Source: Candidatus Wolfebacteria bacterium GW2011_GWB1_47_1 (GTDB lineage: Bacteria > Patescibacteriota > Minisyncoccia > UBA6257 > UBA9933). Taken from it: 64,000 nucleotides of DNA. The notes beneath the pieces were generated by a model that was not told where the DNA came from, did no database searches, and saw nothing but the letters and a program-made list of their open reading frames with translations. This document shows, one piece after another, positions 4,113 to 63,546 of the stretch (positions within the stretch are counted from its first letter, which is position 1; every line of letters begins with the position of its first letter). Location: positions 484,970-548,969 of the forward strand of contig CP011209.1 in NCBI GenBank assembly GCA_001029635.1, in the 5' to 3' direction. A program made the translations under genes and the position numbers.

Positions 4113-4141
4113 AAAAAGAGACGCACGCGTCTCTTTTTTGT
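4113..4141 (+). terminator. Rho-independent terminator (aaaaaagagacgcacgcgtctcttttttg)
   Basis: Perfect GC-containing hairpin followed by a T-run, directly after the stop of the 3057..4085 gene. Confidence 0.7.
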
Positions 4142-4173
4142 TGGGCTATTTTGCGATATACTGGGATAGATAC

Positions 4174-5520
4174 ATGGAGAACATTTTGAAATCATTATTT
4201 GGAGACCTGCCTGCGTCTCCTGTCATTGGTGATATTGTACTTGGCGTCTTGCGGAGTATTTTTGAGGTGTTCGGATATGTTTGGTGGATTGTTATTCCGC
4301 TTGCACTTGCATTTTATCAGTGGGATTTATGGGTTGATGGTAACAAAAGTGCCTTTAAAAAGAAAATTAAATGGGTTGTATTGGAGATGCGTATTCCTAA
4401 AGAAAACCTGCGCAGTCCTAAAGCTATGGAGCAGGTGTTTGCCACCTTGCACACGACCTATTCCGGGGAGATCAGCTGGTGGGATCAGAATATCAAAGGC
4501 AAGACCGAAGGAACTATGTCGTTTGAGATGGTCGGGCGCAGTGGCGGTGTGCATTTCTATATGCGCATCCCGGCTGATCATCGTAACCTCGTAGAGGCCG
4601 CGATCTTTGGTCAATATCCCAATGCCGAGCTTGCTATTGTGGATGATTATGTCGAATTGGTTCCGGCTTCGTTGCCGAACCAAGTTTATGATGTTTGGGG
4701 AACCGACCTTGTTCTCGATAAGGATAGCGCGTATCCGATTAAGACGTATTTGTATTTTGAGGAAAAGGAAGAAGAGCAGCGACTTGATCCCTTGACGGTC
4801 ATCTTGGAGACCATGTCGAAGTTACAAGGAGAGGAGACCATCTGGCTACAGTATGTTATCAAACCGACTGGGGAGAAGACAAATGAGTATAAAAAGAAGG
4901 GGCAGGCGATCGTGGACAAGATGTTGGGACGCGAAGTAAAGGCGGTCGTTGAGCTGGGCGTGTTTGATCATCTGATTATATTGTTCGAAAACTTTTTTAC
5001 GGCATTTATAACCGAACCGAAGTGGCCTGAACCTCCTAAAAAAGTAGAAACAAATCCAAAAACGATTTCCTCCTTAAGCTTCACAGAAAAGGAAGTGCTT
5101 GAAGGGATAGAGGGGAAGATATCAAAGCTGTGCTACGAAGTAAGTATTCGGATGATCTATATCGACCGACAGGAGCTGTTCAATAAATCCTATACCGGCG
5201 CGCTTATCGGTTCGTTCAAGCAATTTGGATCGCACCACATCAATTCATTCAAAGGAAATAAGGATACATCAATTGCGCCACCTAAGGGATTTAAGGCGTG
5301 GCTGTTTCCTAAGTGGAAGAGCCATCAGGAGTATCTCAAGAAGCGTTCTATGTATGATTCCTATAAGGGTCGTGGCATGATTAAGAAGGCGCCTGTGTTT
5401 TCCATTGAAGAGCTTGCAACATTGTATCACGTCCCAACCTCGTTAGTAGGCGCTCCGAGTATGCGCCGTATTGAAGCGAAGAAGGGTGAGCCACCGGAGA
5501 ATCTCCCAATAGAGATGTAG
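4174..5520 (+). CDS. Hypothetical membrane protein (N-terminal TM hairpin plus large soluble domain). Partner of the downstream T4CP-like ATPase.
   Basis: The ORF-track start 4138 is a TTG inside the terminator T-run. The first ATG is 4174 (MENILKS). Two N-terminal hydrophobic helices, then a domain with no known motif. Confidence 0.55.
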   Translation: MENILKSLFGDLPASPVIGDIVLGVLRSIFEVFGYVWWIVIPLALAFYQWDLWVDGNKSAFKKKIKWVVLEMRIPKENLRSPKAMEQVFATLHTTYSGEISWWDQNIKGKTEGTMSFEMVGRSGGVHFYMRIPADHRNLVEAAIFGQYPNAELAIVDDYVELVPASLPNQVYDVWGTDLVLDKDSAYPIKTYLYFEEKEEEQRLDPLTVILETMSKLQGEETIWLQYVIKPTGEKTNEYKKKGQAIVDKMLGREVKAVVELGVFDHLIILFENFFTAFITEPKWPEPPKKVETNPKTISSLSFTEKEVLEGIEGKISKLCYEVSIRMIYIDRQELFNKSYTGALIGSFKQFGSHHINSFKGNKDTSIAPPKGFKAWLFPKWKSHQEYLKKRSMYDSYKGRGMIKKAPVFSIEELATLYHVPTSLVGAPSMRRIEAKKGEPPENLPIEM

Positions 5521-5613: not shown

Positions 5614-7512
5614 ATGAATAATAAAGAAGTCTCAATTTTTGCAAAAACAAATTTTCGCAACCAAAGCGTTAATTTTGGCATCAAGTCAGCTGATCGGCTT
5701 CGTCATATGTATGTCGTCGGCAAGAGCGGTACTGGTAAGACGACCATGATGAAGAATCTGATGATCAATGACATCAAGAATGGCTTCGGTGTTGCCGTGC
5801 TCGATCCCCATGGAGAATTTGTCGAGGAATTGCTTAAGCATGTACCCGAGGATCGCATCAAAGATGTAATCTACGTCAATCCCGCCGATATTGATAACCC
5901 TGTCGGATTTAATCCACTCGAGCGTGTTGGAGAAGAACATGCCCACTTGGTCGCTTCGGCGGTTATGGGTGTATTCCAAAAGATCTGGGTTGATGCCTGG
6001 TCTGCGCGTATGGAGTATATTCTCAATAATACCCTGCTGGCCCTTTTGGAATATCCGGGCACGACGTTATTGAGTATTATGCGCATGCTTGCGGAAAAGG
6101 AATATCGCCAGAAGGTCGTTTCGAATCTTAAGGATCCGGTCATCAAATCATTCTGGGAGAACGAGTTCGCAAAATATACGGACAAGTTTATGACCGAGGC
6201 TATCGCTCCGCTCCAGAACAAGGTCGGACAATTTAGTTCCAATCCAGTCATCCGCAATATTATCGGACAACCAAAGTCTACCATCGACATGCGCAAGGCG
6301 ATGGATGAAGGAAAGATTCTCATATGCAACCTCTCACAAGGCCGACTCGGAGAAGATAACTCGGCATTGCTCGGAGCTATGATCATCACCAAGATCCAGT
6401 TGGCTGCCATGAGTCGTATTGATACTCCTGAAGCGGAACGTCGACCATTCTTTTTGTACATCGACGAGTTCCAAAACTTTTCCACAGGAGCGTTCACCAA
6501 AATATTTGCCGAAGCCCGTAAGTATGGACTCGGTCTTACGCTTGCCCATCAGTACGTTGAGCAGCTTAAAAAGGAGGAAGGTCTCGCCGAGGCGATCGTC
6601 GGAAACATTGGTACCTTGGTATTATTTCGTGTAGGGGCGATCGATGCCGTTTTCTTCGAAAAGGAATTTGAGCCTGAATTTACTCCAGCCGATATGATCG
6701 GCTTGTCAAACAGGCATATTTACCTTAAATTGTTGGTTGACGGTCAGGCGTCTCGGCCCTTTTCAGCAGAAACGTTGCCGCCATATCCAATTCCACAGCC
6801 GAATTTTGAGGATGTTATCATAGCAAATTCCCGCAGACTGTATTCGATGCCGAAACCGCTCGTGGATGAAATGATCGCCAAGGAATATATGGGTTCAGGC
6901 AAGACGTCTATGGAGGATAAGGTCATGCGAAGGGATGAGCGGTCATTGGGATCTACATTAATTCCTCGCGCGCAAGCACCGAGGTCCTTCGGCTCTGGTC
7001 AGGATAAATCCTTCGGCCACCAGCCGGCGGCTCAGAGTAGATCCTTCGGCTCTACTCAGGACAAGCCCCTTGGATCCGCTCAGGACAGGCAGGCATTTGG
7101 CAGAGACCAGGGTAGGTCAGCCGATTCTAGGCCTGTCGCTCATGCGCCTTCGTCGCGCCCTGTCGCGCCCATTAATCGATCTGATGATTCAGGTAAAAAA
7201 GCACCTTTTCATGATTCGACTGCCTTTGAGAAGGTTGTAACCGGTGCCCCTGTGCTCGTAAAACCTGAGGTGGATCGACCGAAACATGTTTATGAAAAGA
7301 AGCCGGTTAATATCGATGACCTAAAAAAAGCGATAGAGGAGACATTGCAAAAACGAAAAGAACCAGTTCTTACCGACAAGTATTTAGGTTCCGTTCAGGA
7401 CGGGCCGGTGCAGCGGCCAAGGAATATTGAGCGCGATACGCAACCCCCTCCTATCGCCTCTCATAGTGATGATAAAGCGGTTGCTGTGCCGGAGAAAGAA
7501 CAGCATACGTAA
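5614..7512 (+). CDS. P-loop ATPase of the TraG/TraD/VirD4 (type IV coupling protein) / FtsK-HerA superfamily, with a low-complexity C-terminal tail
   Basis: Walker A VVGKSGTGKTT, VLDPHGEF, Walker-B-like FFLYIDEFQNF. A conjugative-coupling-protein-like core over about 430 aa. C-terminal 200 aa are a disordered SFGS-QDK repeat tail (about 45-bp DNA period at 6960-7080). Confidence 0.55.
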   Translation: MNNKEVSIFAKTNFRNQSVNFGIKSADRLRHMYVVGKSGTGKTTMMKNLMINDIKNGFGVAVLDPHGEFVEELLKHVPEDRIKDVIYVNPADIDNPVGFNPLERVGEEHAHLVASAVMGVFQKIWVDAWSARMEYILNNTLLALLEYPGTTLLSIMRMLAEKEYRQKVVSNLKDPVIKSFWENEFAKYTDKFMTEAIAPLQNKVGQFSSNPVIRNIIGQPKSTIDMRKAMDEGKILICNLSQGRLGEDNSALLGAMIITKIQLAAMSRIDTPEAERRPFFLYIDEFQNFSTGAFTKIFAEARKYGLGLTLAHQYVEQLKKEEGLAEAIVGNIGTLVLFRVGAIDAVFFEKEFEPEFTPADMIGLSNRHIYLKLLVDGQASRPFSAETLPPYPIPQPNFEDVIIANSRRLYSMPKPLVDEMIAKEYMGSGKTSMEDKVMRRDERSLGSTLIPRAQAPRSFGSGQDKSFGHQPAAQSRSFGSTQDKPLGSAQDRQAFGRDQGRSADSRPVAHAPSSRPVAPINRSDDSGKKAPFHDSTAFEKVVTGAPVLVKPEVDRPKHVYEKKPVNIDDLKKAIEETLQKRKEPVLTDKYLGSVQDGPVQRPRNIERDTQPPPIASHSDDKAVAVPEKEQHT

Positions 7513-8832: not shown

Positions 8833-9924
8833 ATGGAAACTCCTAGGCCAAAAGTATTCGTCATGATGTCGGGTGGCGTCGATTCGAGCGTCGCTGCTTT
8901 TTTGTTGCGTGAGCAAGGGTTGTATGACGTGGTTGGGGCATTTATCAAAGGCTACAACGTTGATGGGTGTCAGGATAGGGAGTCTGAGGATGCCCGCCGG
9001 GTTGCCGAGCATTTGGGTATCCCATTTTACGTCATTGATCTTGAAGAGGAATATAAGCAATTCGTTGTCGAGTATCTGGTCAACGGGTATCGCAACGGCA
9101 TTACGCCAAATCCGGATGTGATGTGTAATAAGGAGATCAAGTTTGGCGTGTTTCTGGAGAAGGCGCTTGCGCTGGGTGCCAATTTTGTAGCTACGGGGCA
9201 TTATGTAAGAATTTCAAATTTCAAATTTCAAATTTCTAATGAGGATACGAAGACCGTGTGTGCGTTGCAACAGGGGATTGATGATAACAAAGATCAAAGT
9301 TATTTTTTGTGGACGTTGCGACAGGGGCAGTTGAAACATTGCCTGTTTCCGATTGGCGCGTACACCAAGCCAGAGATTCGCGCCATCGCAACGAAGGCCG
9401 GATTATCTACCGCACAGAAGAAAGATTCTCAGGGAATCTGTTTTTTGGGGAACATATCGTTGCGTGAATTTTTGGAACAATATCTACCCAAGAAGCGCGG
9501 AGATATTATCACAGTTGACGGTAAGAAGGTCGGTGAGCATGATGGGGCCTGGTTCTACACTATCGGACAACGCCATGGTCTTGGTATTGGTGGCGGTCCG
9601 GCTTATTTTGTTGTTAAAAAAGATGTCCGTAATAATATCGTAACCGTGGCGCATACTGAAGGTTTGCTCGGACAGGCGATTGACCATATTGATCTTGTCG
9701 ATGTTAATTTTATGGGAATATATGCCGCGCAATGTCCGGAATCCATCCCGGTCATGGCACGGATCCGTTATCGTCAGGCATTGTTTTCGGCTGTTTTGAT
9801 CGCGGAAAAAAACGGAGTCTACCGATTACAGTTTGATGAGTTTCAGAAATTCATAGCACCTGGCCAGTCAGCCGTACTTTATGGTAATGATGGCGTTATG
9901 ATCGGAGGTGGGGTTATGGCATGA
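8833..9924 (+). CDS. mnmA: tRNA-specific 2-thiouridylase MnmA
   Basis: PP-loop MSGGVDSSVAA, CNKEIKFG, KDQSYFLW and ICFLG motifs. Contains an in-frame heptanucleotide tandem repeat (aatttca x4) at about 9207-9236. Confidence 0.9.
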   Translation: METPRPKVFVMMSGGVDSSVAAFLLREQGLYDVVGAFIKGYNVDGCQDRESEDARRVAEHLGIPFYVIDLEEEYKQFVVEYLVNGYRNGITPNPDVMCNKEIKFGVFLEKALALGANFVATGHYVRISNFKFQISNEDTKTVCALQQGIDDNKDQSYFLWTLRQGQLKHCLFPIGAYTKPEIRAIATKAGLSTAQKKDSQGICFLGNISLREFLEQYLPKKRGDIITVDGKKVGEHDGAWFYTIGQRHGLGIGGGPAYFVVKKDVRNNIVTVAHTEGLLGQAIDHIDLVDVNFMGIYAAQCPESIPVMARIRYRQALFSAVLIAEKNGVYRLQFDEFQKFIAPGQSAVLYGNDGVMIGGGVMA

Positions 9925-10084
9925 TCGAAAGAGAGGGGTGGCTAGAGAATTTCTAAGCTGGAGTGCGCGGCGATCTTTGATTTATGCAATAGGGTGGCGC
10001 GGGGCTTCCTATTTATAACATAGCCATTAGGTGGTACCATAAAAATGTATATAAAGGTCGCATTATTTTAGAAAAATAAATTAT

Positions 10085-10207
10085 ATGATGGGATATTATG
10101 GTATGGGTAGTGGCATGTTCTTTTTTGGCTGGATCATTTATGTGTTGGTATTGATCTTGCTTGTGCTTGGGATTGTCGCTTTGTGGAAATATATCAACAA
10201 GAAGTAA
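10085..10207 (+). CDS. Micro-ORF, 40-aa single-TM protein (MMGYYGMGSGMFFFGWIIYVLVLILLVLGIVALWKYINKK)
   Basis: Clean ATG...TAA frame with a hydrophobic core, followed by a terminator. Its 3' 43 bp are duplicated at 11134-11176. Confidence 0.4.
   Translation: MMGYYGMGSGMFFFGWIIYVLVLILLVLGIVALWKYINKK
10121..10163. repeat. 43-bp direct repeat, left copy (ttttttggctggatcatttatgtgttggtattgatcttgcttg)
   Basis: Identical 43-mer at 11134-11176. The two copies bracket the terminator-promoter-HExxH gene-terminator cassette. Confidence 0.85.
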
Positions 10208-10220
10208 TGTGCTTACAGTG

Positions 10221-10251
10221 CAAAAACCGCCTTTATACAGGCGGTTTTTGC
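10221..10251 (+). terminator. Rho-independent terminator (aaaaccgcctttatacaggcggttttt)
   Basis: Hairpin plus T-run after the micro-ORF. Confidence 0.7.
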
Positions 10252-10284
10252 ATAGCAGTGGCAATTTCCTTCCAACGGTAAGGT

Positions 10285-10354
10285 TGACAACTTTGTATAT
10301 ATATGTTATATATATTATAGAAACTTTAACCACTATAAAGAGGAGGAGGCATTT
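10285..10354 (+). promoter_or_regulatory. Strong sigma-70-like promoter (TTGACA, 17 nt, TATATA) plus RBS aagaggaggagg for the HExxH gene
   Basis: ggTTGACAactttgtatatatatgtTATATAtattatag... followed by AAGAGGAGGAGG 8 nt before ATG 10355. Confidence 0.55.
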
Positions 10355-11110
10355 ATGCATGCGAATGGAACGCATTGGGCTCGATTTTTTTCGAAAAACT
10401 GTCGCAATGAAATGATGCGTGAGTGTCGAGACCTCGGCATTGAACCGAGCGCAATCCGCAGGAGTATTCTATTGAGAAATATGATAGGACGGTTATGTCA
10501 TATTGTATTTCAATCACATCCTGGTAACATCATTTTTAGCCTCAGATCAAAAGAGGCTGCGAATGAGGCTGTAAAAAATTCGATCGCAAGTTATCGGAAA
10601 AAAACCAAAGAAACCGGTGGAGATTTTTTTCGGATCAATGTCGATCGGATTGGTGCTTACGATCTTCGACGCGATCCAATCGGCAGCTTGCATAAGGTAT
10701 CTATGTTCTCTAATTTTTCAGAAATCGATGATACGTATTCTTATGCCGAGCTTCCTGTTCCCAATGAATGGGTATTACTCATGGGGATGGCTGCTCACGA
10801 AGTTCGTCATCGCATGCAGTTTGTGCTGGGCGTAGATCTTGTTGCTGTAGATGGAGCAGCCTACAAAGGTTTTACCGACGGGATGCTCTCGCATAGCGTC
10901 TGGCTCGAAGCGCTTAATACTAAGCTTGCGCTCGAACGAATATACTGTGATACGGTGGGATATCATCCTAGAGTGCGAGATTGGTATGCTTCTGATGTTG
11001 AGTTTGATGCCCGCGCCGTGGAATCGTACATGATGCATGCCTTGCATCGTTATCCGAATCTGGACAACGAGGCACTGCGAAGTATTATGTTCTTGCATCC
11101 GTTTAGATGA
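10355..11110 (+). CDS. Hypothetical HExxH-motif protein (putative zinc metallopeptidase-like), cassette-borne
   Basis: MGMAAHEVRHRMQF carries an HEXXH signature. Own strong promoter, RBS and terminator. No wider family recognised. Confidence 0.5.
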   Translation: MHANGTHWARFFSKNCRNEMMRECRDLGIEPSAIRRSILLRNMIGRLCHIVFQSHPGNIIFSLRSKEAANEAVKNSIASYRKKTKETGGDFFRINVDRIGAYDLRRDPIGSLHKVSMFSNFSEIDDTYSYAELPVPNEWVLLMGMAAHEVRHRMQFVLGVDLVAVDGAAYKGFTDGMLSHSVWLEALNTKLALERIYCDTVGYHPRVRDWYASDVEFDARAVESYMMHALHRYPNLDNEALRSIMFLHPFR

Positions 11111-11112
11111 TC

Positions 11113-11141
11113 ACAGGGGTTAGCCCCTGTGTTTTTTTTGG
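11113..11141 (+). terminator. Rho-independent terminator (cacaggggttagcccctgtgtttttttt)
   Basis: Hairpin caggggt/tagc/cccctg plus an 8-T run. The T-run merges into the right direct-repeat copy. Confidence 0.7.
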
Positions 11142-11176
11142 CTGGATCATTTATGTGTTGGTATTGATCTTGCTTG
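11134..11176. repeat. 43-bp direct repeat, right copy. A start-less remnant of the micro-ORF 3' half.
   Basis: Perfect match to 10121-10163. In-frame continuation has no start codon and a stop upstream. Confidence 0.85.
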
Positions 11177-11324
11177 AATTAAAGGGGTCAGGTACCTTTA
11201 ATTTATCAGAAAATAAGCTTCCATTCGCAAGGCTTATTTTTATGGCTGGCGCTATGGGGCGATGTTGAAACCTTTTTAAACAAAAAAGCGACCAATGATG
11301 GCCGCCTCATGTAATGAAGAAAAG

Positions 11325-11795
11325 CTATAGTGCTGTTCCGTCGGGATTGAGGACTTCGTTGCGAAATGATTTCGGCGAGTGCTTTGGAGGGTCGGGTGTA
11401 AGTATTCCGCAACTTCGAGCGGATTTAAATGCAGTTTCACCTAACCACCAGCTGATAGTTGCCATCATAATGCAGATGATTGCTCCGAGCCAGACAGATT
11501 GCATCGGCCCAGGATCGAGGTTTGCCGCCAACGTAAGAACGATGGCAATAGCACCACTTACCATTTGCCCAGTCTGTTCAAAGTCAATATCATTCTTGGC
11601 TTGCCAAGAAGGATTTGCTTTGAGCAGGTAGTTACTTAGCGTTCTTTTGCTATAGAGCAGGTAGACGATCAGTAGGATGCTCGCGGGGATCTTGGCAAAG
11701 ATGCCGAGCCAAGGAAGGAGCAATAAAAAGACGATTGCTACCGTGAAACTCCACCCAGAGACGTGGTACAGATCTTCGAAGTAAACCTCTTTCAT
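11325..11795 (-). CDS. Hypothetical integral membrane protein
   Basis: 156-aa ORF on the minus strand with 4 predicted TM helices. No better-supported overlapping gene. The C-terminal 30 aa may be read-through. Confidence 0.45.
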   Translation of the reverse strand: MKEVYFEDLYHVSGWSFTVAIVFLLLLPWLGIFAKIPASILLIVYLLYSKRTLSNYLLKANPSWQAKNDIDFEQTGQMVSGAIAIVLTLAANLDPGPMQSVWLGAIICIMMATISWWLGETAFKSARSCGILTPDPPKHSPKSFRNEVLNPDGTAL

Positions 11796-11945
11796 AAAAG
11801 CCCTCTTATCTAATGTATTTAGTTTCTAATAAATCTGAATATACAATGCATTCTTTAGAAGCATTTGTAAAGGTTTGCTGGCAGTCATGGATTCGGACCC
11901 CGAGTGTTTTAAGGAATAGGCTGAATAGGGTATACTAAAGGCATT

Positions 11946-14173: not shown

Positions 14174-15445
14174 ATGCATATTTTGGATGAATTAAAGGAA
14201 CGGGGGCTGATCTATCAGATTTCAAATGAAGAGGAGCTCAGGGCGCTTATAGACCGCAAAGACGGGTCCTTTTATATCGGGTTTGATCCGACCGCGTCTA
14301 GTCTGCATGTTGGCGGGTTACTGGGGATCGTTTTCGCTAAGCGCCTTGAAAATGCCGGCATGAAGCCGGTCATGCTCGTAGGGGGTGCAACGGGACGCAT
14401 TGGTGATCCGAGCGGCCGATCACAGGAGCGCGTACTGAATACAACTGATGTTGTCGAATCAATGACCGCGGGGCTTGAAAAGCAGATCAGTCAGTTTCAT
14501 TTCAAGCATGCGACTTATGTAAACAATTATGACTGGCTTGGTATGATGCCGCTTGTTGATTTTTTGCGTGATGCCGGAAAGTATTTTACGGTCAATGAAA
14601 TGCTTGCCAAGGAGTCGGTAAAGACGCGCATGGAAGACGGTATATCGTTCACCGAGTTTAGCTATCAGTTATTGCAGGCATATGATTTTTTAAAACTGTA
14701 TGAATCGCGTGGCGTTGAATTGCAATTGGGTGGTTCCGACCAGTGGGGGAATATTACTGCGGGCATTGAACTGGTAAGGAAGGTCAAGCACGTTGAAGTA
14801 ATTGGGCTGACTCATCCGCTTGTTACTCGTGCCGATGGAAAGAAGATGGGCAAGAGCGAGAGTGGGGCGGTTTGGCTTGATGCGACCATGACATCGCCGT
14901 ATCACTTGTATCAGTTTTGGCTGAATGTGGATGATTTGGACGTGGTCAAATTCTTGAAGTATTATACGTTTCTAACACTTACAGAGATCGCCGAGCTGGA
15001 GCAGTTTCTCCAAGAGGAGCCTGAAAAACGTGCGGCTCATAGGGCGCTCGCCGATGAGGTGACCGAGTTTGTGCATGGTAAGGACGCACTGGAACAGGCT
15101 CAGAAAATTTCTGAAGCACTTTTTGGCGGCGATATTTCCGGGATCATCGGGGAGAAAAAGAAGTGTGAGGCGTTGTTTGTCGGCAACCCGGCTGTGCAGC
15201 GGGTCGGCGATGAAGCGGTTGTCGGAGTTGGTATTGCGGATTTTCTTACCTCTCTGGCATGGAAGTCTCCATTATCTAAGCGACAGGCGCGTGAGGATGT
15301 GGAAGCCGGGGCGATCGAGTTGAATGGCAAGAAGATTGAATCATCTGAGCATATATTGATCGAAAGTGACATTTTGTTCGACCGATATATTATCGTGAAG
15401 CGAGGGAAGAAAAATTATCATTTTGTCGAAGTAATTGCCGAATGA
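14174..15445 (+). CDS. tyrS: Tyrosine--tRNA ligase
   Basis: HIGH-like FYIGFDPTASSLHVGGL, KMSKS-like KKMGKSESG, C-terminal S4 domain. Start set at ATG 14174 (MHILDELKERGLIYQ), after the terminator. Confidence 0.9.
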   Translation: MHILDELKERGLIYQISNEEELRALIDRKDGSFYIGFDPTASSLHVGGLLGIVFAKRLENAGMKPVMLVGGATGRIGDPSGRSQERVLNTTDVVESMTAGLEKQISQFHFKHATYVNNYDWLGMMPLVDFLRDAGKYFTVNEMLAKESVKTRMEDGISFTEFSYQLLQAYDFLKLYESRGVELQLGGSDQWGNITAGIELVRKVKHVEVIGLTHPLVTRADGKKMGKSESGAVWLDATMTSPYHLYQFWLNVDDLDVVKFLKYYTFLTLTEIAELEQFLQEEPEKRAAHRALADEVTEFVHGKDALEQAQKISEALFGGDISGIIGEKKKCEALFVGNPAVQRVGDEAVVGVGIADFLTSLAWKSPLSKRQAREDVEAGAIELNGKKIESSEHILIESDILFDRYIIVKRGKKNYHFVEVIAE

Positions 15446-17597: not shown

Positions 17598-17718
17598 AAC
17601 GCATTAATTTTGTGAACTACTTTGTTGCGGGTCCCTGTTAATTCGGTCGGAGTACCGCTGTACGCCTTCCTCATTAACTTTCCCGCGTCGCGTATTTCAT
17701 TAAAATTCACGCGTTTTA
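17597..17718 (+). ncRNA. Structured intergenic element, copy A (candidate ncRNA or complex terminator family)
   Basis: Core TTGCGGGTCCC...GTAC-N4-GTAC...TTTCCCGCG shared with copies B-D. Outer stem aaaacgc/gcgtttt. Begins at the stop codon of the upstream gene. Confidence 0.5.
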
Positions 17719-19815: not shown

Positions 19816-19940
19816 AATTCTTCGCCATTTTGCGAGCTGTTGTGTTGCGGGTCCCTGTTGGTTCGGTCGATGTACCAGTAAGTACATCCTCCTCCCCACC
19901 TTTCCCGCGCCTTACATCTCATCAAAATTGCAAACAATTT
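19816..19940 (+). ncRNA. Structured intergenic element, copy B
   Basis: Same core as A/C (ttgcgggtccctgttggttcggtcgatgtaccagtaagtac...tttcccgcgcc). Outer imperfect stem aaaattcttcgccattttg / caaaattgcaaacaatttt. Begins right after the rplU stop. Confidence 0.5.
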
Positions 19941-21981: not shown

Positions 21982-22015
21982 AAAAACACGGCGCGTGAGG
22001 CGCCGTGTTTTTTTG
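21982..22015 (+). terminator. Rho-independent terminator aaaaacacggcgcgtgaggcgccgtgtttttttg (copy 1 of an identical pair)
   Basis: Perfect palindrome cacggcgc-gtgag-gcgccgtg flanked by A- and T-runs. An identical 34-mer sits at 22772-22805. Confidence 0.8.
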
Positions 22016-22017
22016 TT

Positions 22018-22758
22018 ATGGATATGATATATAATTCAACTATGAAAATTGTTAAGAAAATCGTATTAGCCTTGCGTTTTATTTTATTAGACCAGGTATT
22101 TTCGATGAAAATAAAAAAGATGAGCGGGGGAGATTATTTTATTGCCGAAACAATTCCATATCAGTGCCAATTTGCCACTCCTGAGTTGGTAGCGGATATA
22201 TTGGAAAAACGTATAAAAGGAGAAGACGACCCTAATTGGAATAATTTCGGGTTTCCTGATAGAGAAGAGTATGCATATTGGAGTTGGCGGGCGTGTGGGG
22301 TTGCCTGTCTTAAAATGGTGGTTGATTTTTATGCGTTGGCGGGGAAAACCATTGGCGAACTAACGTATGAAGGAGTTAAACTTGGCGGTTATGACGTGAG
22401 TGCTGATAGAGGGTGGTTTTACAAGCCCTTACTTAATCAAGCTCAGAATTATGGATTGACTGGATATACCGTTTCGCATTTCGGCATCGCTTCCATTTGT
22501 GAGCTGATGAAGAAAAAGCGTTTCTTCGTTGCTTCTGTGAATCCATCTTTGATCCGCTTTGATAAGACCGGTGTTAATGAAGAGCCGGGCGGGCACCTTG
22601 TTTTAGTGATTGGCTGCAGGGTAAAGAGTGGGGCTATCGAAGGCTTCTTTATTCATAACCCATCGGGCAAGCTAGATGAAACGAGAAGAAAAACATTTAT
22701 ACCTATAGATGTTTTTAATAAGGCATATAGTAAAAAAGGAATTGCCATCTGGAGATAA
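22018..22758 (+). CDS. Papain-like cysteine peptidase, C39-like (Peptidase_C39_2-type) domain protein. AT-rich cassette gene.
   Basis: YWSWRACGVACLKMV (candidate catalytic Cys) and GGHLVLVIGC (candidate His). Markedly lower GC than neighbours. Bracketed by identical 34-bp terminator copies. Confidence 0.45.
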   Translation: MDMIYNSTMKIVKKIVLALRFILLDQVFSMKIKKMSGGDYFIAETIPYQCQFATPELVADILEKRIKGEDDPNWNNFGFPDREEYAYWSWRACGVACLKMVVDFYALAGKTIGELTYEGVKLGGYDVSADRGWFYKPLLNQAQNYGLTGYTVSHFGIASICELMKKKRFFVASVNPSLIRFDKTGVNEEPGGHLVLVIGCRVKSGAIEGFFIHNPSGKLDETRRKTFIPIDVFNKAYSKKGIAIWR

Positions 22759-22771
22759 GAGGCGCTATATA

Positions 22772-22805
22772 AAAAACACGGCGCGTGAGGCGCCGTGTTT
22801 TTTTG
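22772..22805. terminator. Identical second copy of the 34-bp palindromic terminator. Bidirectional, also serves recR on the minus strand.
   Basis: 100% identical to 21982-22015. The recR stop codon abuts it at 22807. Confidence 0.8.
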
Positions 22806-31158: not shown

Positions 31159-31233
31159 GGTGCCCATAGTTCAGTGGTAGAACGTCGGTTTGTGGTACCG
31201 AAGGTCGAGGGTTCGATACCCTCTGGGCACCCA
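31159..31233 (+). tRNA. tRNA-His (anticodon GUG) with an encoded G-1
   Basis: Extra 5' G pairing with the discriminator C, acceptor GUGCCCA/UGGGCAC, D-arm GUUC-AGUGGUA-GAAC, anticodon stem UCGGU/ACCGA, loop UUGUGGU, T-arm GAGGG-UUCGAUA-CCCUC. Confidence 0.85.
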
Positions 31234-31372: not shown

Positions 31373-32206
31373 ATGGATAGTTTTAAAAATATAGTCATTA
31401 TCTCGGGTATCTCTGGGACCATTGGAAACGCTCTTTTTCAAGAGTTTGTTTTTGATAAAGATACGCTAATTTTCGGAATTTCTCGGCGCGGGATAAAAAA
31501 CCTTAAAACATTACCCCATTATACTTGCATAGTAGATGTGAATCTTGAGGATAAAAAAGATATCGCAAACTTCTCTAAGAAGGTTTTTAGCCTTAACCCA
31601 GAGAGTATTTCCTATATCCATTGTATTGGTCCCTTTAAGACCGAACTTGATAGGGTTACGCTGCAAAGAAAAATAGAAATAGATGACGATGGTGATGGAC
31701 TTGATGATGAGATATATAAAAATATATTTATTCTGGCAAAAAATATGGCGGTTGGCTTAATAAGCCAAAGACAGAATAGCCCTATCCATTTAAGTTTTGT
31801 AAATATAGGATCATTAGTAGAGAATTATGACATATCTATTTTTAGGTCGTGGACAGGCGTGAGGAGGTTGGTGCGGGAAGAATTTAAACGATTAGCTTCT
31901 GATTTTAAAGATATTTCTTCAATAGATATTGTCGTTTCAAGTATTCTTTCGGTGACTGAGCTGATTGCTCGACCTTATGTTTTGGGGACGGATAATGATC
32001 CGCGATATTGGTTAAAACCGCAAGATTTAGCTAAACGTGTTAAAGCCATTATTCTAAAAAGGAAGGATGGTTTTCGACAATACAAAATATTTCATAAAGC
32101 ACCTGGAGTATCACACGATCGATTTAAGGAGAGTGAAATGGTTAAAAGGCGATTATTTGAGCATTATGGGCTCATAAAGAGTGAACCGCGCAAGAAATTT
32201 AAATGA
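31373..32206 (+). CDS. Rossmann-fold SDR / NAD-dependent epimerase-like protein (AT-rich, foreign-looking)
   Basis: N-terminal glycine-rich dinucleotide motif IIISGISGTIGNALFQEF. Very AT-rich compared with the core genes. Sits immediately after tRNA-His. Confidence 0.45.
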   Translation: MDSFKNIVIISGISGTIGNALFQEFVFDKDTLIFGISRRGIKNLKTLPHYTCIVDVNLEDKKDIANFSKKVFSLNPESISYIHCIGPFKTELDRVTLQRKIEIDDDGDGLDDEIYKNIFILAKNMAVGLISQRQNSPIHLSFVNIGSLVENYDISIFRSWTGVRRLVREEFKRLASDFKDISSIDIVVSSILSVTELIARPYVLGTDNDPRYWLKPQDLAKRVKAIILKRKDGFRQYKIFHKAPGVSHDRFKESEMVKRRLFEHYGLIKSEPRKKFK

Positions 32207-36512: not shown

Positions 36513-36642
36513 TATAAAAACCGTTCGCTTCGCGAATTACTGCGTTGCGGGTCCCCGGCGCTTCGGTCGTCGTACCAGTAAGTACGCTTTCCTTGCGTCG
36601 CTCCCGCGCCTCGTACTTCATCAAAGTGAACGGTTTTTATAC
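36513..36642 (+). ncRNA. Structured intergenic element, copy C
   Basis: Core ttgcgggtcccc...gtaccagtaagtac...ctcccgcgcc. Perfect 14-bp outer stem tataaaaaccgttc / gaacggtttttata. Starts 2 nt after the ppsA stop. Confidence 0.55.
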
Positions 36643-46127: not shown

Positions 46128-46250
46128 ATAACGAATAGGGGTCGGCAAACTGCTGCGTTACGGGGCCCCGTTGGCTTGGTTGAAGTGCTACTTGCACATC
46201 TTCCTCGCCAACTTCCCCCGTACTTTGCATTTCATCCAACCCTATCCGTT
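46128..46250 (+). ncRNA. Structured intergenic element, copy D (rpoB-rpoC spacer). Diverged copy with compensatory stem changes.
   Basis: ttacggggcccc...gtgc-tactt-gcac...cttcccccgta. Both conserved stems are kept by paired substitutions relative to A-C. Outer stem aacgaataggggtcggcaaactgc / gcatttcatccaaccctatccgtt. Confidence 0.5.
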
Positions 46251-63349: not shown

Positions 63350-63525
63350 TCGATGCTATGTTTATTTGCGTGCATGTATGCATATATACCTGCGCGTTTG
63401 TATATGCGCATACTTGTACGGATGTAGATACATGTTTGTGCGTATGGTATGTATGTGTATATACGTACGCATGTATGTGTATGTATGTGTATATACGTAC
63501 GCATGTATGTGTATGTATGTATCCG
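63350..63525. repeat. Low-complexity GT/AT-rich tandem repeat (about 32-bp unit tacgtacgcatgtatgtgtatgtatgtgtata, 2 full copies plus degenerate copies)
   Basis: Direct inspection: gtatatacgtacgcatgtatgtgtatgtatgtgtatatacgtacgcatgtatgtgtatgtatgtatcc. The ORFs called across it on both strands are artefacts. Confidence 0.8.
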
Positions 63526-63546
63526 GATAGTTGCAAGGTATCAATT

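Follow-up and report, generated by a model that had tools for sequence, protein, structure and literature searches.

The genome of Candidatus Wolfebacteria bacterium GW2011_GWB1_47_1, a member of the Patescibacteria (candidate phyla radiation, CPR) from a groundwater population, carries a gene for a 251-amino-acid (aa) protein with an HExxH motif that is enclosed by two perfect 43-bp direct repeats, the left copy of which lies within the gene of a 40-aa micro-protein. The window analysed here is a stretch of 64,000 nucleotides (nt) of this genome (contig CP011209.1, positions 484,970 to 548,969), to which all coordinates below refer. With a probability of about one half, the right copy of the repeat is a recombination scar, generated by illegitimate or homology-assisted recombination joined at a T-run, rather than the footprint of a transposition. 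Between mnmA and copA, two housekeeping genes, a single Candidatus Wolfebacteria species has a small flexible islet, which comprises, in this order, a native and conserved micro-protein gene, an autonomously transcribed species-specific orphan (the HExxH gene) and a strain-variable cassette; the proteins of the locus are deposited in GenBank as AKM78245-AKM78248. Within this islet, the right copy most likely derives from the micro-protein gene, as a partial copy of its central, transmembrane-coding segment that is out of place and has no function. An initial annotation of the window, made from the DNA alone, had proposed a cargo gene inserted with duplication of an unusually long target or, as a second option, a duplication or capture event. 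The repeats, the self-contained unit between them, the lack of a nearby recombinase and the expectation of a cassette-less arrangement all stand, whereas an insertion that duplicates its target does not, because the left copy is native on both sides and the empty site predicted by such an event breaks a conserved gene. The second option, duplication or capture, agrees with what is observed.

The repeated 43-mer, TTTTTTGGCTGGATCATTTATGTGTTGGTATTGATCTTGCTTG, occurs exactly twice in the window, on the plus strand at 10121-10163 and 11134-11176, with no mismatch between the copies, just as initially annotated; in shuffled sequence the expected number of such matches is 0.00, even when three mismatches are permitted. 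The left copy begins exactly at codon 13 of the 40-aa open reading frame (ORF) of the micro-protein and spans codons 13-26 (FFGWIIYVLVLILL) together with the first base of codon 27. The right copy is positioned exactly between the terminator hairpin of the HExxH gene, on its left, and a second hairpin, termed hp1, that starts at the very next base on its right. Both edges of the repeat are sharp: local alignments of the two upstream flanks and of the two downstream flanks score below the shuffle means and reveal no residual similarity beyond either edge. A decayed larger duplication was considered and ruled out, as neither flank pair retains any similarity. With 43/43 identity, sharp edges and direct copies at both ends of the enclosed segment, the pair has the properties expected of an att-like core.

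The same arrangement is found in at least six independent assemblies. Both copies, together with their unique flanks, are present in five contigs (L001, L002, L085, L093 and L094), and the JGI, ENA, NCBI TPA and ANAN16 assemblies and two MEGAHIT k141 contigs assemble them alike; the JGI contig, the NCBI TPA assembly, the ANAN16 scaffold and the two MEGAHIT contigs are either 100% identical or two to three single-nucleotide polymorphisms (SNPs) apart. The closed, curated genome of 984,447 bp also contains the repeat arrangement. As a k-mer length of 141 exceeds the 43 bp of the repeat, each copy is tied to its own unique flanks, and the possibility of an assembly artefact, which the initial annotation had named as one way in which its reading could fail, is dismissed. 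It is exceedingly improbable that the repeat or the position of the cassette results from mis-joined reads: an older contig (LCMT01000001.1) does stop 16 bp short of the right copy and two SNP-variant contigs terminate at 10256, but against this stand the identical, uniquely flanked copies in every assembly just named, including the closed genome.

These contig ends form an observation in their own right. The older GW2011 contig (L003, LCMT01000001.1) ends at 11118, two short SNP-variant contigs (L101 and L102) both end at 10256, the same base in two assemblies, and a third (L103) ends at 10229; the ends of the last three lie at or just past the terminator hairpin of the micro-ORF. A hidden cassette boundary at 10256 or 10229 was considered and set aside, as no repeat or branch accounts for the ends. 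The ends of all four contigs may be due to coverage lost at the hairpin and the AT-rich promoter, to a read set common to them or to an alternative junction that went unseen.

That the left copy belongs where it stands is established by the family to which the micro-protein belongs. The gene (10085-10207, plus strand) encodes a protein with a single transmembrane segment, and a first homologue search returned 16 relatives, every one ending in LLVLGIVALWKYINKK. A profile search then recovered 587 clusters at E<=1, mostly of 43-44 aa and with a modal length of 44 aa. The family pattern consists of an N-terminal MM[DG]YN-Gly-rich segment, one transmembrane helix and a C-terminal LL[VI]LGI[VA]ALWKYINKK; the C-terminal columns are conserved at 85-96%, whereas the central transmembrane part is variable, and the near-invariant C-terminus is seen across at least 120 of the clusters listed. 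The micro-ORF of the window aligns to the family over its full length, its C-terminus equals the family consensus, and it is the 14 codons directly 3' of the left copy that encode this ending. As an intact family member whose conserved C-terminus follows the repeat without interruption, the gene shows that the left copy and both of its flanks are native. The DNA encoding the C-terminus carries many synonymous differences between lineages, and selection therefore acts on the micro-protein itself. The genomic contexts of the family are unrelated to one another (loci L086-L090 and L095-L100), its members being found directly upstream of rpsL, beside radical SAM or DAO genes, or in a metal-resistance cluster, and in five loci from other lineages no partial duplicate of the micro-ORF and no element was found near them. 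No Pfam or NCBIfam model matches the micro-protein, and the family is absent from the viral contigs of IMG/VR. This large, unannotated micro-protein family of the Patescibacteria, almost invariant at its C-terminus, merits naming and a test of its function. Downstream of the micro-ORF, its predicted terminator (10218-10253, plus strand) is a near-perfect 17+17 palindrome, an inverted repeat with 94% complementarity flanked by A and T runs, with a folding energy of -27.3 kcal/mol (z = -6.0 against shuffles). This structure bears out the terminator initially placed here, and it could act in both directions.

The right copy, by comparison, shows no sign of being maintained as a coding sequence. 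It had been described as a start-less remnant, but an ATG at 11107, which overlaps the stop codon of the HExxH gene (ATGA), opens a 53-aa ORF (11107-11268, plus strand; AKM78247.1) that runs through the terminator and, in frame, through the repeat. This ORF was rejected as a real gene by reference to a co-occurring allele, carried by a contig of 1,057 bp from the same JGI sample (L084), in which indels shift the frame to give 23 aa and then a stop. The frameshift implies that the right copy is not being maintained for its coding capacity, and AKM78247.1 is probably not a gene. The alternative allele equals the window throughout the final 120 bp of the HExxH gene and differs at six positions (~3.5%) in the next ~170 bp, among them the indels in the terminator, whose hairpin is nevertheless retained. 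It carries the right copy at 42/43 identity, the last base being changed from G to A. The copy thus predates the split between the alleles and is not a very recent private insertion.

Further to the right the two alleles carry different genes. The hairpin hp1 (11177-11203, plus strand; AATTAAAGG-GGTCAGGTA-CCTTTAATT) occupies the first bases after the repeat and is followed by an AT-rich, terminator-like hairpin with a T-run (11209-11245, plus strand) that is common to both alleles. The strain-variable segment (11276-11873) contains, in the window, a minus-strand gene for a membrane protein of 156 aa (11325-11795) with a terminator at 11308-11285; the codon usage of this gene (z = -3.4) is even more atypical than that of the HExxH gene. 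In the alternative allele, which is represented on five short contigs, a plus-strand NUDIX hydrolase gene (Pfam 5.5e-12) replaces the 156-aa gene before the sequence rejoins that of the window upstream of copA. The flanks are shared by the two alleles, and the unrelated genes that they enclose mark the interval as a strain-variable islet.

The segment between the repeat copies measures ~970 bp, and cassette plus one copy together form a unit of 1,013 bp. It contains, in order, the last 14 codons of the micro-ORF, the micro-ORF terminator, a promoter-like site, a ribosome-binding site, the 251-aa ORF and a second terminator, and is thus the self-contained transcription unit that had been recognized initially. 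The predicted promoter (10284-10312, plus strand), read from the sequence, consists of a perfect -35 hexamer, TTGACA (10284-10289), a 17-bp spacer and TGtTATATA, an extended -10 TG with a hexamer matching the consensus at four of six positions. The -10 hexamer lacks the final T at position 6, so that the near-consensus promoter initially described is not listed by a consensus scan; it may nonetheless serve as promoter of the HExxH gene. A strong Shine-Dalgarno sequence, GAGGAGGAGG (10340-10349, plus strand), ends five bases before the ATG at 10355, in agreement with the strong ribosome-binding site reported. The ORF itself (10355-11110, plus strand) encodes a soluble protein with no transmembrane segment. 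Its frame is the only one of the six that is coding-like, with a coding score of 0.118 versus -0.21 to -0.82 in the other five, and in codon usage it departs from what is typical of this genome (z = -1.9), with a GC content at third codon positions (GC3) of 0.417 versus 0.51. Directly behind it lies the predicted HExxH terminator (11112-11139, plus strand), composed of an 8-bp GC-rich stem with a 4-nt loop (11112-11131) and a run of eight T's (11132-11139); it has a folding energy of -17.2 kcal/mol (z = -3.4) and is also listed by a terminator scan. The last six bases of this T-run are the first six of the repeat, and the right copy therefore supplies six of the eight U's of the terminator, in line with the statement of the initial annotation that the T-run merges into the right repeat. 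Judged by their hairpins and U-tracts, both 11112-11139 and 10218-10253 are predicted to be intrinsic terminators.

The 251-aa ORF is an accessory orphan gene with good expression signals. Among 5.8e9 clustered proteins (word-indexed) and 1.84e9 representatives (full phmmer search), its product matched only itself, and sequence searches of Pfam, PHROG and PDB gave no match. The lone weak match was to the NCBIfam metalloprotease model NF038122 at the motif (E = 0.099; 12.7 bits, compared with a cut-off of 80). The motif, HEVRH at residues 148-152 (nt 10796-10810), is present as initially described, but it is from this motif alone that the label of a putative zinc peptidase derives, and the protein is rich in histidine (12 of 251 residues), to the extent that 3.2% of shuffled versions contain an HExxH. 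Like the zincin (HExxH) metallopeptidases, the protein appears in low-confidence predictions to place the motif inside a helix and glutamate residues in the next helices; unlike them, it is not recognized by any family profile at threshold, the best E-value being the 0.099 given above. Single-sequence AlphaFold2 modelling yielded a predicted local distance difference test (pLDDT) score of 33, which renders a fold search meaningless. As an orphan among 15 billion proteins that has clear expression signals, the protein is a candidate for very recent origin or extreme divergence.

Population variants of the HExxH protein comprise the substitution V115E and one 48-bp in-frame gap. The gap stems from a contig of one GW2011 bin (L092, LCNK01000008.1) that differs from the window by three clean gaps of 42-48 bp (10972-11019, 11835-11876 and 14705-14750) and by no SNPs; one causes an in-frame loss of 16 aa in the HExxH gene, another lies inside the essential gene tyrS and another is intergenic. 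The 48-bp deletion (P0018) was consequently rejected as a natural allele, since the same contig is gapped in tyrS and in the intergenic region, and, like the other two gaps, is most likely an artefact of scaffold gaps.

These features suggest how the scar could have formed. The left junction would be an illegitimate join at which two T-runs provided the microhomology, one being the U-tract of the HExxH terminator and the other the TTTTTT at micro-ORF codons 13-14. Either of two routes could lead to it: the 1,013-bp unit could have undergone tandem duplication or a template switch, or homology-facilitated illegitimate recombination could have joined a donor fragment with the micro-ORF and HExxH gene to the recipient DNA, upstream of the copy of the segment already present there. 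The right junction would lie at the start of the hairpin-bounded variable region, at hp1, truncating whatever followed the second copy. In support of this scheme, the right copy is bounded by a hairpin and T-run on the left and by hp1 on the right, and the region to its right is exchanged between co-occurring strains. Once formed, the two copies provide 43 bp of perfect homology, by which recombination can delete 1,013 bp; such a deletion would remove the HExxH gene and swap the C-terminus of the micro-protein, leaving a fusion of 55 aa.

The same fusion is encoded by the empty site that an insertion with target duplication predicts. Its product, MGYYGMGSGMFFFGWIIYVLVLILL-ELKGSGTFNL..., runs through two hairpins and has ELKGSGTFNL... 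in place of the family-invariant C-terminus VLGIVALWKYINKK, so that removal of the cassette does not restore a target. Nor is a displaced native 3' end of the micro-ORF found to the right of the right copy, as 10164-10360 aligned with 11177-11340 scores 15, against a shuffle mean of 16.7. In accordance with the initial annotation, a search covering +/-10 kb and ten further ORFs turned up no recombinase, integrase or transposase; the genes within +/-10 kb include those for SecDF, a sigma factor, a VirD4-like ATPase, EF-P, MnmA, CopA and TyrRS. The only ORF between the repeats is that of the orphan, which belongs to no Pfam, PHROG or NCBIfam family. No pair of terminal inverted repeats joins 10164-10200 with 11100-11133, just inside the direct repeats, and no second copy of the cassette, or relative of it, was found at other sites. 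Taken together, the broken empty site and the lack of a displaced 3' end, a recombinase and terminal inverted repeats leave a transposon-type reading unsupported. In a scan of JGI metagenomes, a 34-mer core of the repeat was found on one further contig only, the variant L084 from the same locus. Viral origin was also considered and rejected: the 43-mer core and the 34-nt terminator described below are, like the micro-protein family, absent from IMG/VR, where four matches to the hairpin motif compare with ~28 expected by chance. The initial annotation had proposed that relatives be compared for an empty site. A scan anchored on MnmA, covering 185,579 GTDB species genomes and 80 loci, yielded a best MnmA match of 60% identity, and none of the 80 loci had the micro-ORF, the HExxH gene or the 156-aa gene.

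A cassette-less arrangement of exactly the predicted form does exist on one contig. When the 53-aa ORF was looked up among protein clusters, it led to a protein of 55 aa equal to the predicted fusion and encoded by Logan contig SRR6486454_464 (L091; 1,306 bp), in which window positions 9285-10163 are joined to 11177-11603 via a single 43-mer. Its flanks are 100% identical to the window and it is the exact product of recombination between the repeat copies. The Logan assemblies presumably used k=31, a length below that of the 43-bp repeat, and a low-coverage graph that lost both cassette branches would give this contig as well; it could therefore be either a real allele or a graph collapse. The empty-site junction had no match in the JGI metagenomes. 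If the filled arrangement is written as L-R-C-R-F and the deletion form as L-R-F, a circle or tandem form would contain a junction consisting of hairpin, 43-mer and TGCTTGGGATTG (C-R-m3'). Exact look-ups of alternative start versions and of the circle/tandem junction peptide in the protein collection were negative.

Two further single genes of this species lie between short repeats. In the window, a 34-nt bidirectional terminator, AAAAACACGGCGCGTGAGGCGCCGTGTTTTTTTG, forms a second perfect repeat pair (21982-22015 and 22772-22805) around a single C39-like peptidase gene (22018-22758; Pfam 2.8e-6; GC3 0.389; z = -1.7), whose neighbours are an upstream plus-strand gene and a convergent recR. It looks as though one terminator received this gene as an insertion, or as though the gene arrived along with a copy of that terminator. 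In the alternative allele L084, the NUDIX gene lies between two 27-nt copies of hp1 (contig positions 174-200 and 845-871), which match at 25/27 positions; the loop GGTCAGGTA is common to both and the two differences are compensatory changes in the stem. This suggests that hp1 is a structured element of cassette boundaries or of mRNA 3' ends. Rfam families were limited to tRNAs elsewhere in the window, and nothing was matched at the locus. With three single genes in one species lying between repeats, a common mechanism of acquisition becomes a possibility that can be tested. On this account single genes would be acquired recurrently in Patescibacteria, independently of a recombinase or with one supplied in trans, leaving direct repeats of 27-43 bp, although little probability is attached to it. 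In each case the repeat would derive from a hairpin or terminator, or from sequence immediately upstream of either, and the instances of the process would be the 43-mer-bracketed HExxH gene, the terminator-bracketed C39 peptidase gene and the hairpin-bracketed NUDIX gene, with L091 as the true empty site of the first.

Several points weigh against the recombination scar. No relative closer than 60% MnmA identity is available among the 185,579 species genomes to show the ancestral state, every scenario constructed requires at least two steps, and no microhomology is found at the right junction. Furthermore, the two additional genes within 27-34-bp repeats could reflect one dedicated insertion mechanism rather than independent scars, and L091, if real and ancestral, restores weight to an insertion-type history. 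The corresponding alternative is that a mobile single-gene cassette integrated at the locus, creating or using the long flanking repeats through an att-type site or through hairpin- or terminator-directed staggered cleavage by functions acting in trans; in doing so, the cassette would bring a replacement 3' end for the micro-protein gene, as do phages that integrate into protein-coding genes. Perfect direct repeats of 43 bp are typical of the identity segments of attL/attR, the cargo is atypical in codon usage and equipped with a promoter and terminators of its own, and the cassette-less contig has the exact form predicted. The C39-like peptidase gene (GC3 0.389) within perfect 34-bp terminator repeats in the same window and the NUDIX gene within 27-nt hairpin repeats would fit the same process, and integrase-less elements flanked by att sites, known as cis-mobilizable elements (CIMEs), have been described (PMC5704250). 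Such an integration is unlikely, even if far from negligible, given that no integrase or transposase occurs in the region or the other ORFs examined, that the native 3' end is not found displaced to the right and the empty site is a broken gene, and that cassette and protein are found nowhere else among 15 billion proteins. The absence of the circle/tandem junction peptide from the protein collection and of the empty-site junction from the JGI scan argues in the same direction, as do the ~93 bp (HExxH) and ~72 bp (NUDIX) of native or shared sequence that separate the left repeat from the foreign gene, since a spacing of this kind, which includes a terminator, is not predicted by target-site duplication.

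Two other explanations leave the HExxH gene where it is and concern only the origin or use of the right copy. [quoted passage not shown] A patch of 37-43 bp lies within the SPDIR range of 3 to ~100 bp (bioRxiv 10.1101/2023.11.22.568220), the left junction offers a microhomology of T6-T8, and the source is only 1 kb away on the same strand. The right junction, however, has no microhomology, SPDIR occurs below 1e-12 in wild-type Acinetobacter baylyi (bioRxiv 10.1101/2023.11.22.568220), and the two other repeat-bracketed genes are left unexplained, making this a rather improbable history. Still less can be said for a functional right copy, which would encode either a 53-aa membrane peptide coupled to the HExxH gene or a 43-nt antisense RNA to the micro-protein mRNA, similar to a type I toxin-antitoxin system. 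The ATG at 11107 in the ATGA overlap is in frame with the repeat and opens an ORF with a hydrophobic stretch of 22 residues, and by analogy the micro-protein may be likened to small hydrophobic toxins in size and shape. Yet the ORF is frameshifted in L084 and has an efficient-looking terminator within its first 11 codons. An antisense transcript is similarly disfavoured, with no minus-strand promoter found in 11177-11320 and the minus-strand terminator of the 156-aa gene lying upstream of the repeat. As there is also no Rfam match, and no examined family member has a partial copy nearby, a function of this kind is highly improbable.

Elsewhere in the window, four diverged copies (61-82% identity) of an intergenic element of ~57 nt are found at 17609-17665, 19829-19885, 36529-36585 and 46142-46198, each just past a long ORF and with the core TTGCGGGTCCC...TTCGGTCG..GTACC; the element has no Rfam match at the gathering threshold. 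An ORF of 277 aa (31373-32206; GC 0.355, GC3 0.302), which has the lowest codon score of the window and no Pfam match, is located 140 bp downstream of a tRNA gene (31160-31231) and may likewise have been acquired. Copies of the 32-nt unit GTATGTATGTGTATATACGTACGCATGTATGT form a short tandem array at 63372-63532, at the end of the window. Upstream of the islet, at a distance of 2.5-6 kb and among housekeeping genes, are genes for a VirD4/TraG-type coupling-protein ATPase (5614-7512) and a DUF8128 protein (4138-5520); no other conjugation or integration genes were seen nearby.

Among known systems, flexible islets and the minimal mobile elements (MMEs) of Neisseria are regions in which cassettes between conserved flanks are replaced by homologous recombination. 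The locus shares with them its conserved mnmA/copA flanks, the alternative genes in co-occurring strains, the lack of a dedicated recombinase and the atypical codon usage. A 43-bp internal duplicate of a neighbouring gene is, however, not a known feature of those systems, and exchange of the HExxH gene is not seen except possibly in L091. Phage morons are promoter-gene-terminator units inserted between two genes, and resemble the HExxH gene as autonomous single-gene units that lie between terminators and differ in composition from their neighbours; unlike them, the unit described here has a chromosomal context and no viral relatives, and morons are not defined by flanking repeats. Elements such as e14 and phage 21 insert into a protein-coding gene, icd, and supply a replacement 3' end. 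Integrase-less, att-flanked derivatives of integrative elements constitute the CIMEs (PMC5704250). In common with such gene-inserting prophages and CIMEs, the locus has direct repeats of tens of bp, one copy in an intact gene, cargo between the copies and no integrase. It departs from them in that the unit is only ~1 kb, the repeat is internal and stops short of the stop codon, and there is no displaced 3' remnant; moreover, no related integrase-bearing element is known for the unit and no excision junction was detected.

The insertion sequences IS1549 and IS1634 generate long, variable target duplications of 8-514 bp (PMC2266710). Similarly, unusually long direct repeats surround the segment in question, and repeat length varies among the cases described here (27, 34 and 43 bp). 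In contrast to these elements, the unit has neither transposase nor terminal inverted repeats, is present as a single copy, and would have as its target a broken gene. Homology-facilitated illegitimate recombination joins DNA at short microhomologies without a site-specific enzyme. In SPDIR, ectopic intragenomic single strands anneal at microhomologies and cause microindels of 3 to ~100 bp (bioRxiv 10.1101/2023.11.22.568220). The T-run join, the ectopic intragenomic template, the size of the patch and the lack of a site-specific enzyme are all features that the locus has in common with these two processes, which differ from it in that they are known from experiments only in transformable model bacteria, whereas the event in the window lacks an ancestral sequence. 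The locus fails the defining tests of CIMEs and of IS1549/IS1634, and the odds are about even that it is an illegitimate-recombination scar in a flexible islet of the replacement type. If this reading is true, the locus is an ordinary, albeit unusually clean, example of CPR islet remodelling without dedicated mobile-element enzymes, and its repeat pair is a natural deletion substrate by which gene loss could be followed in groundwater time series.

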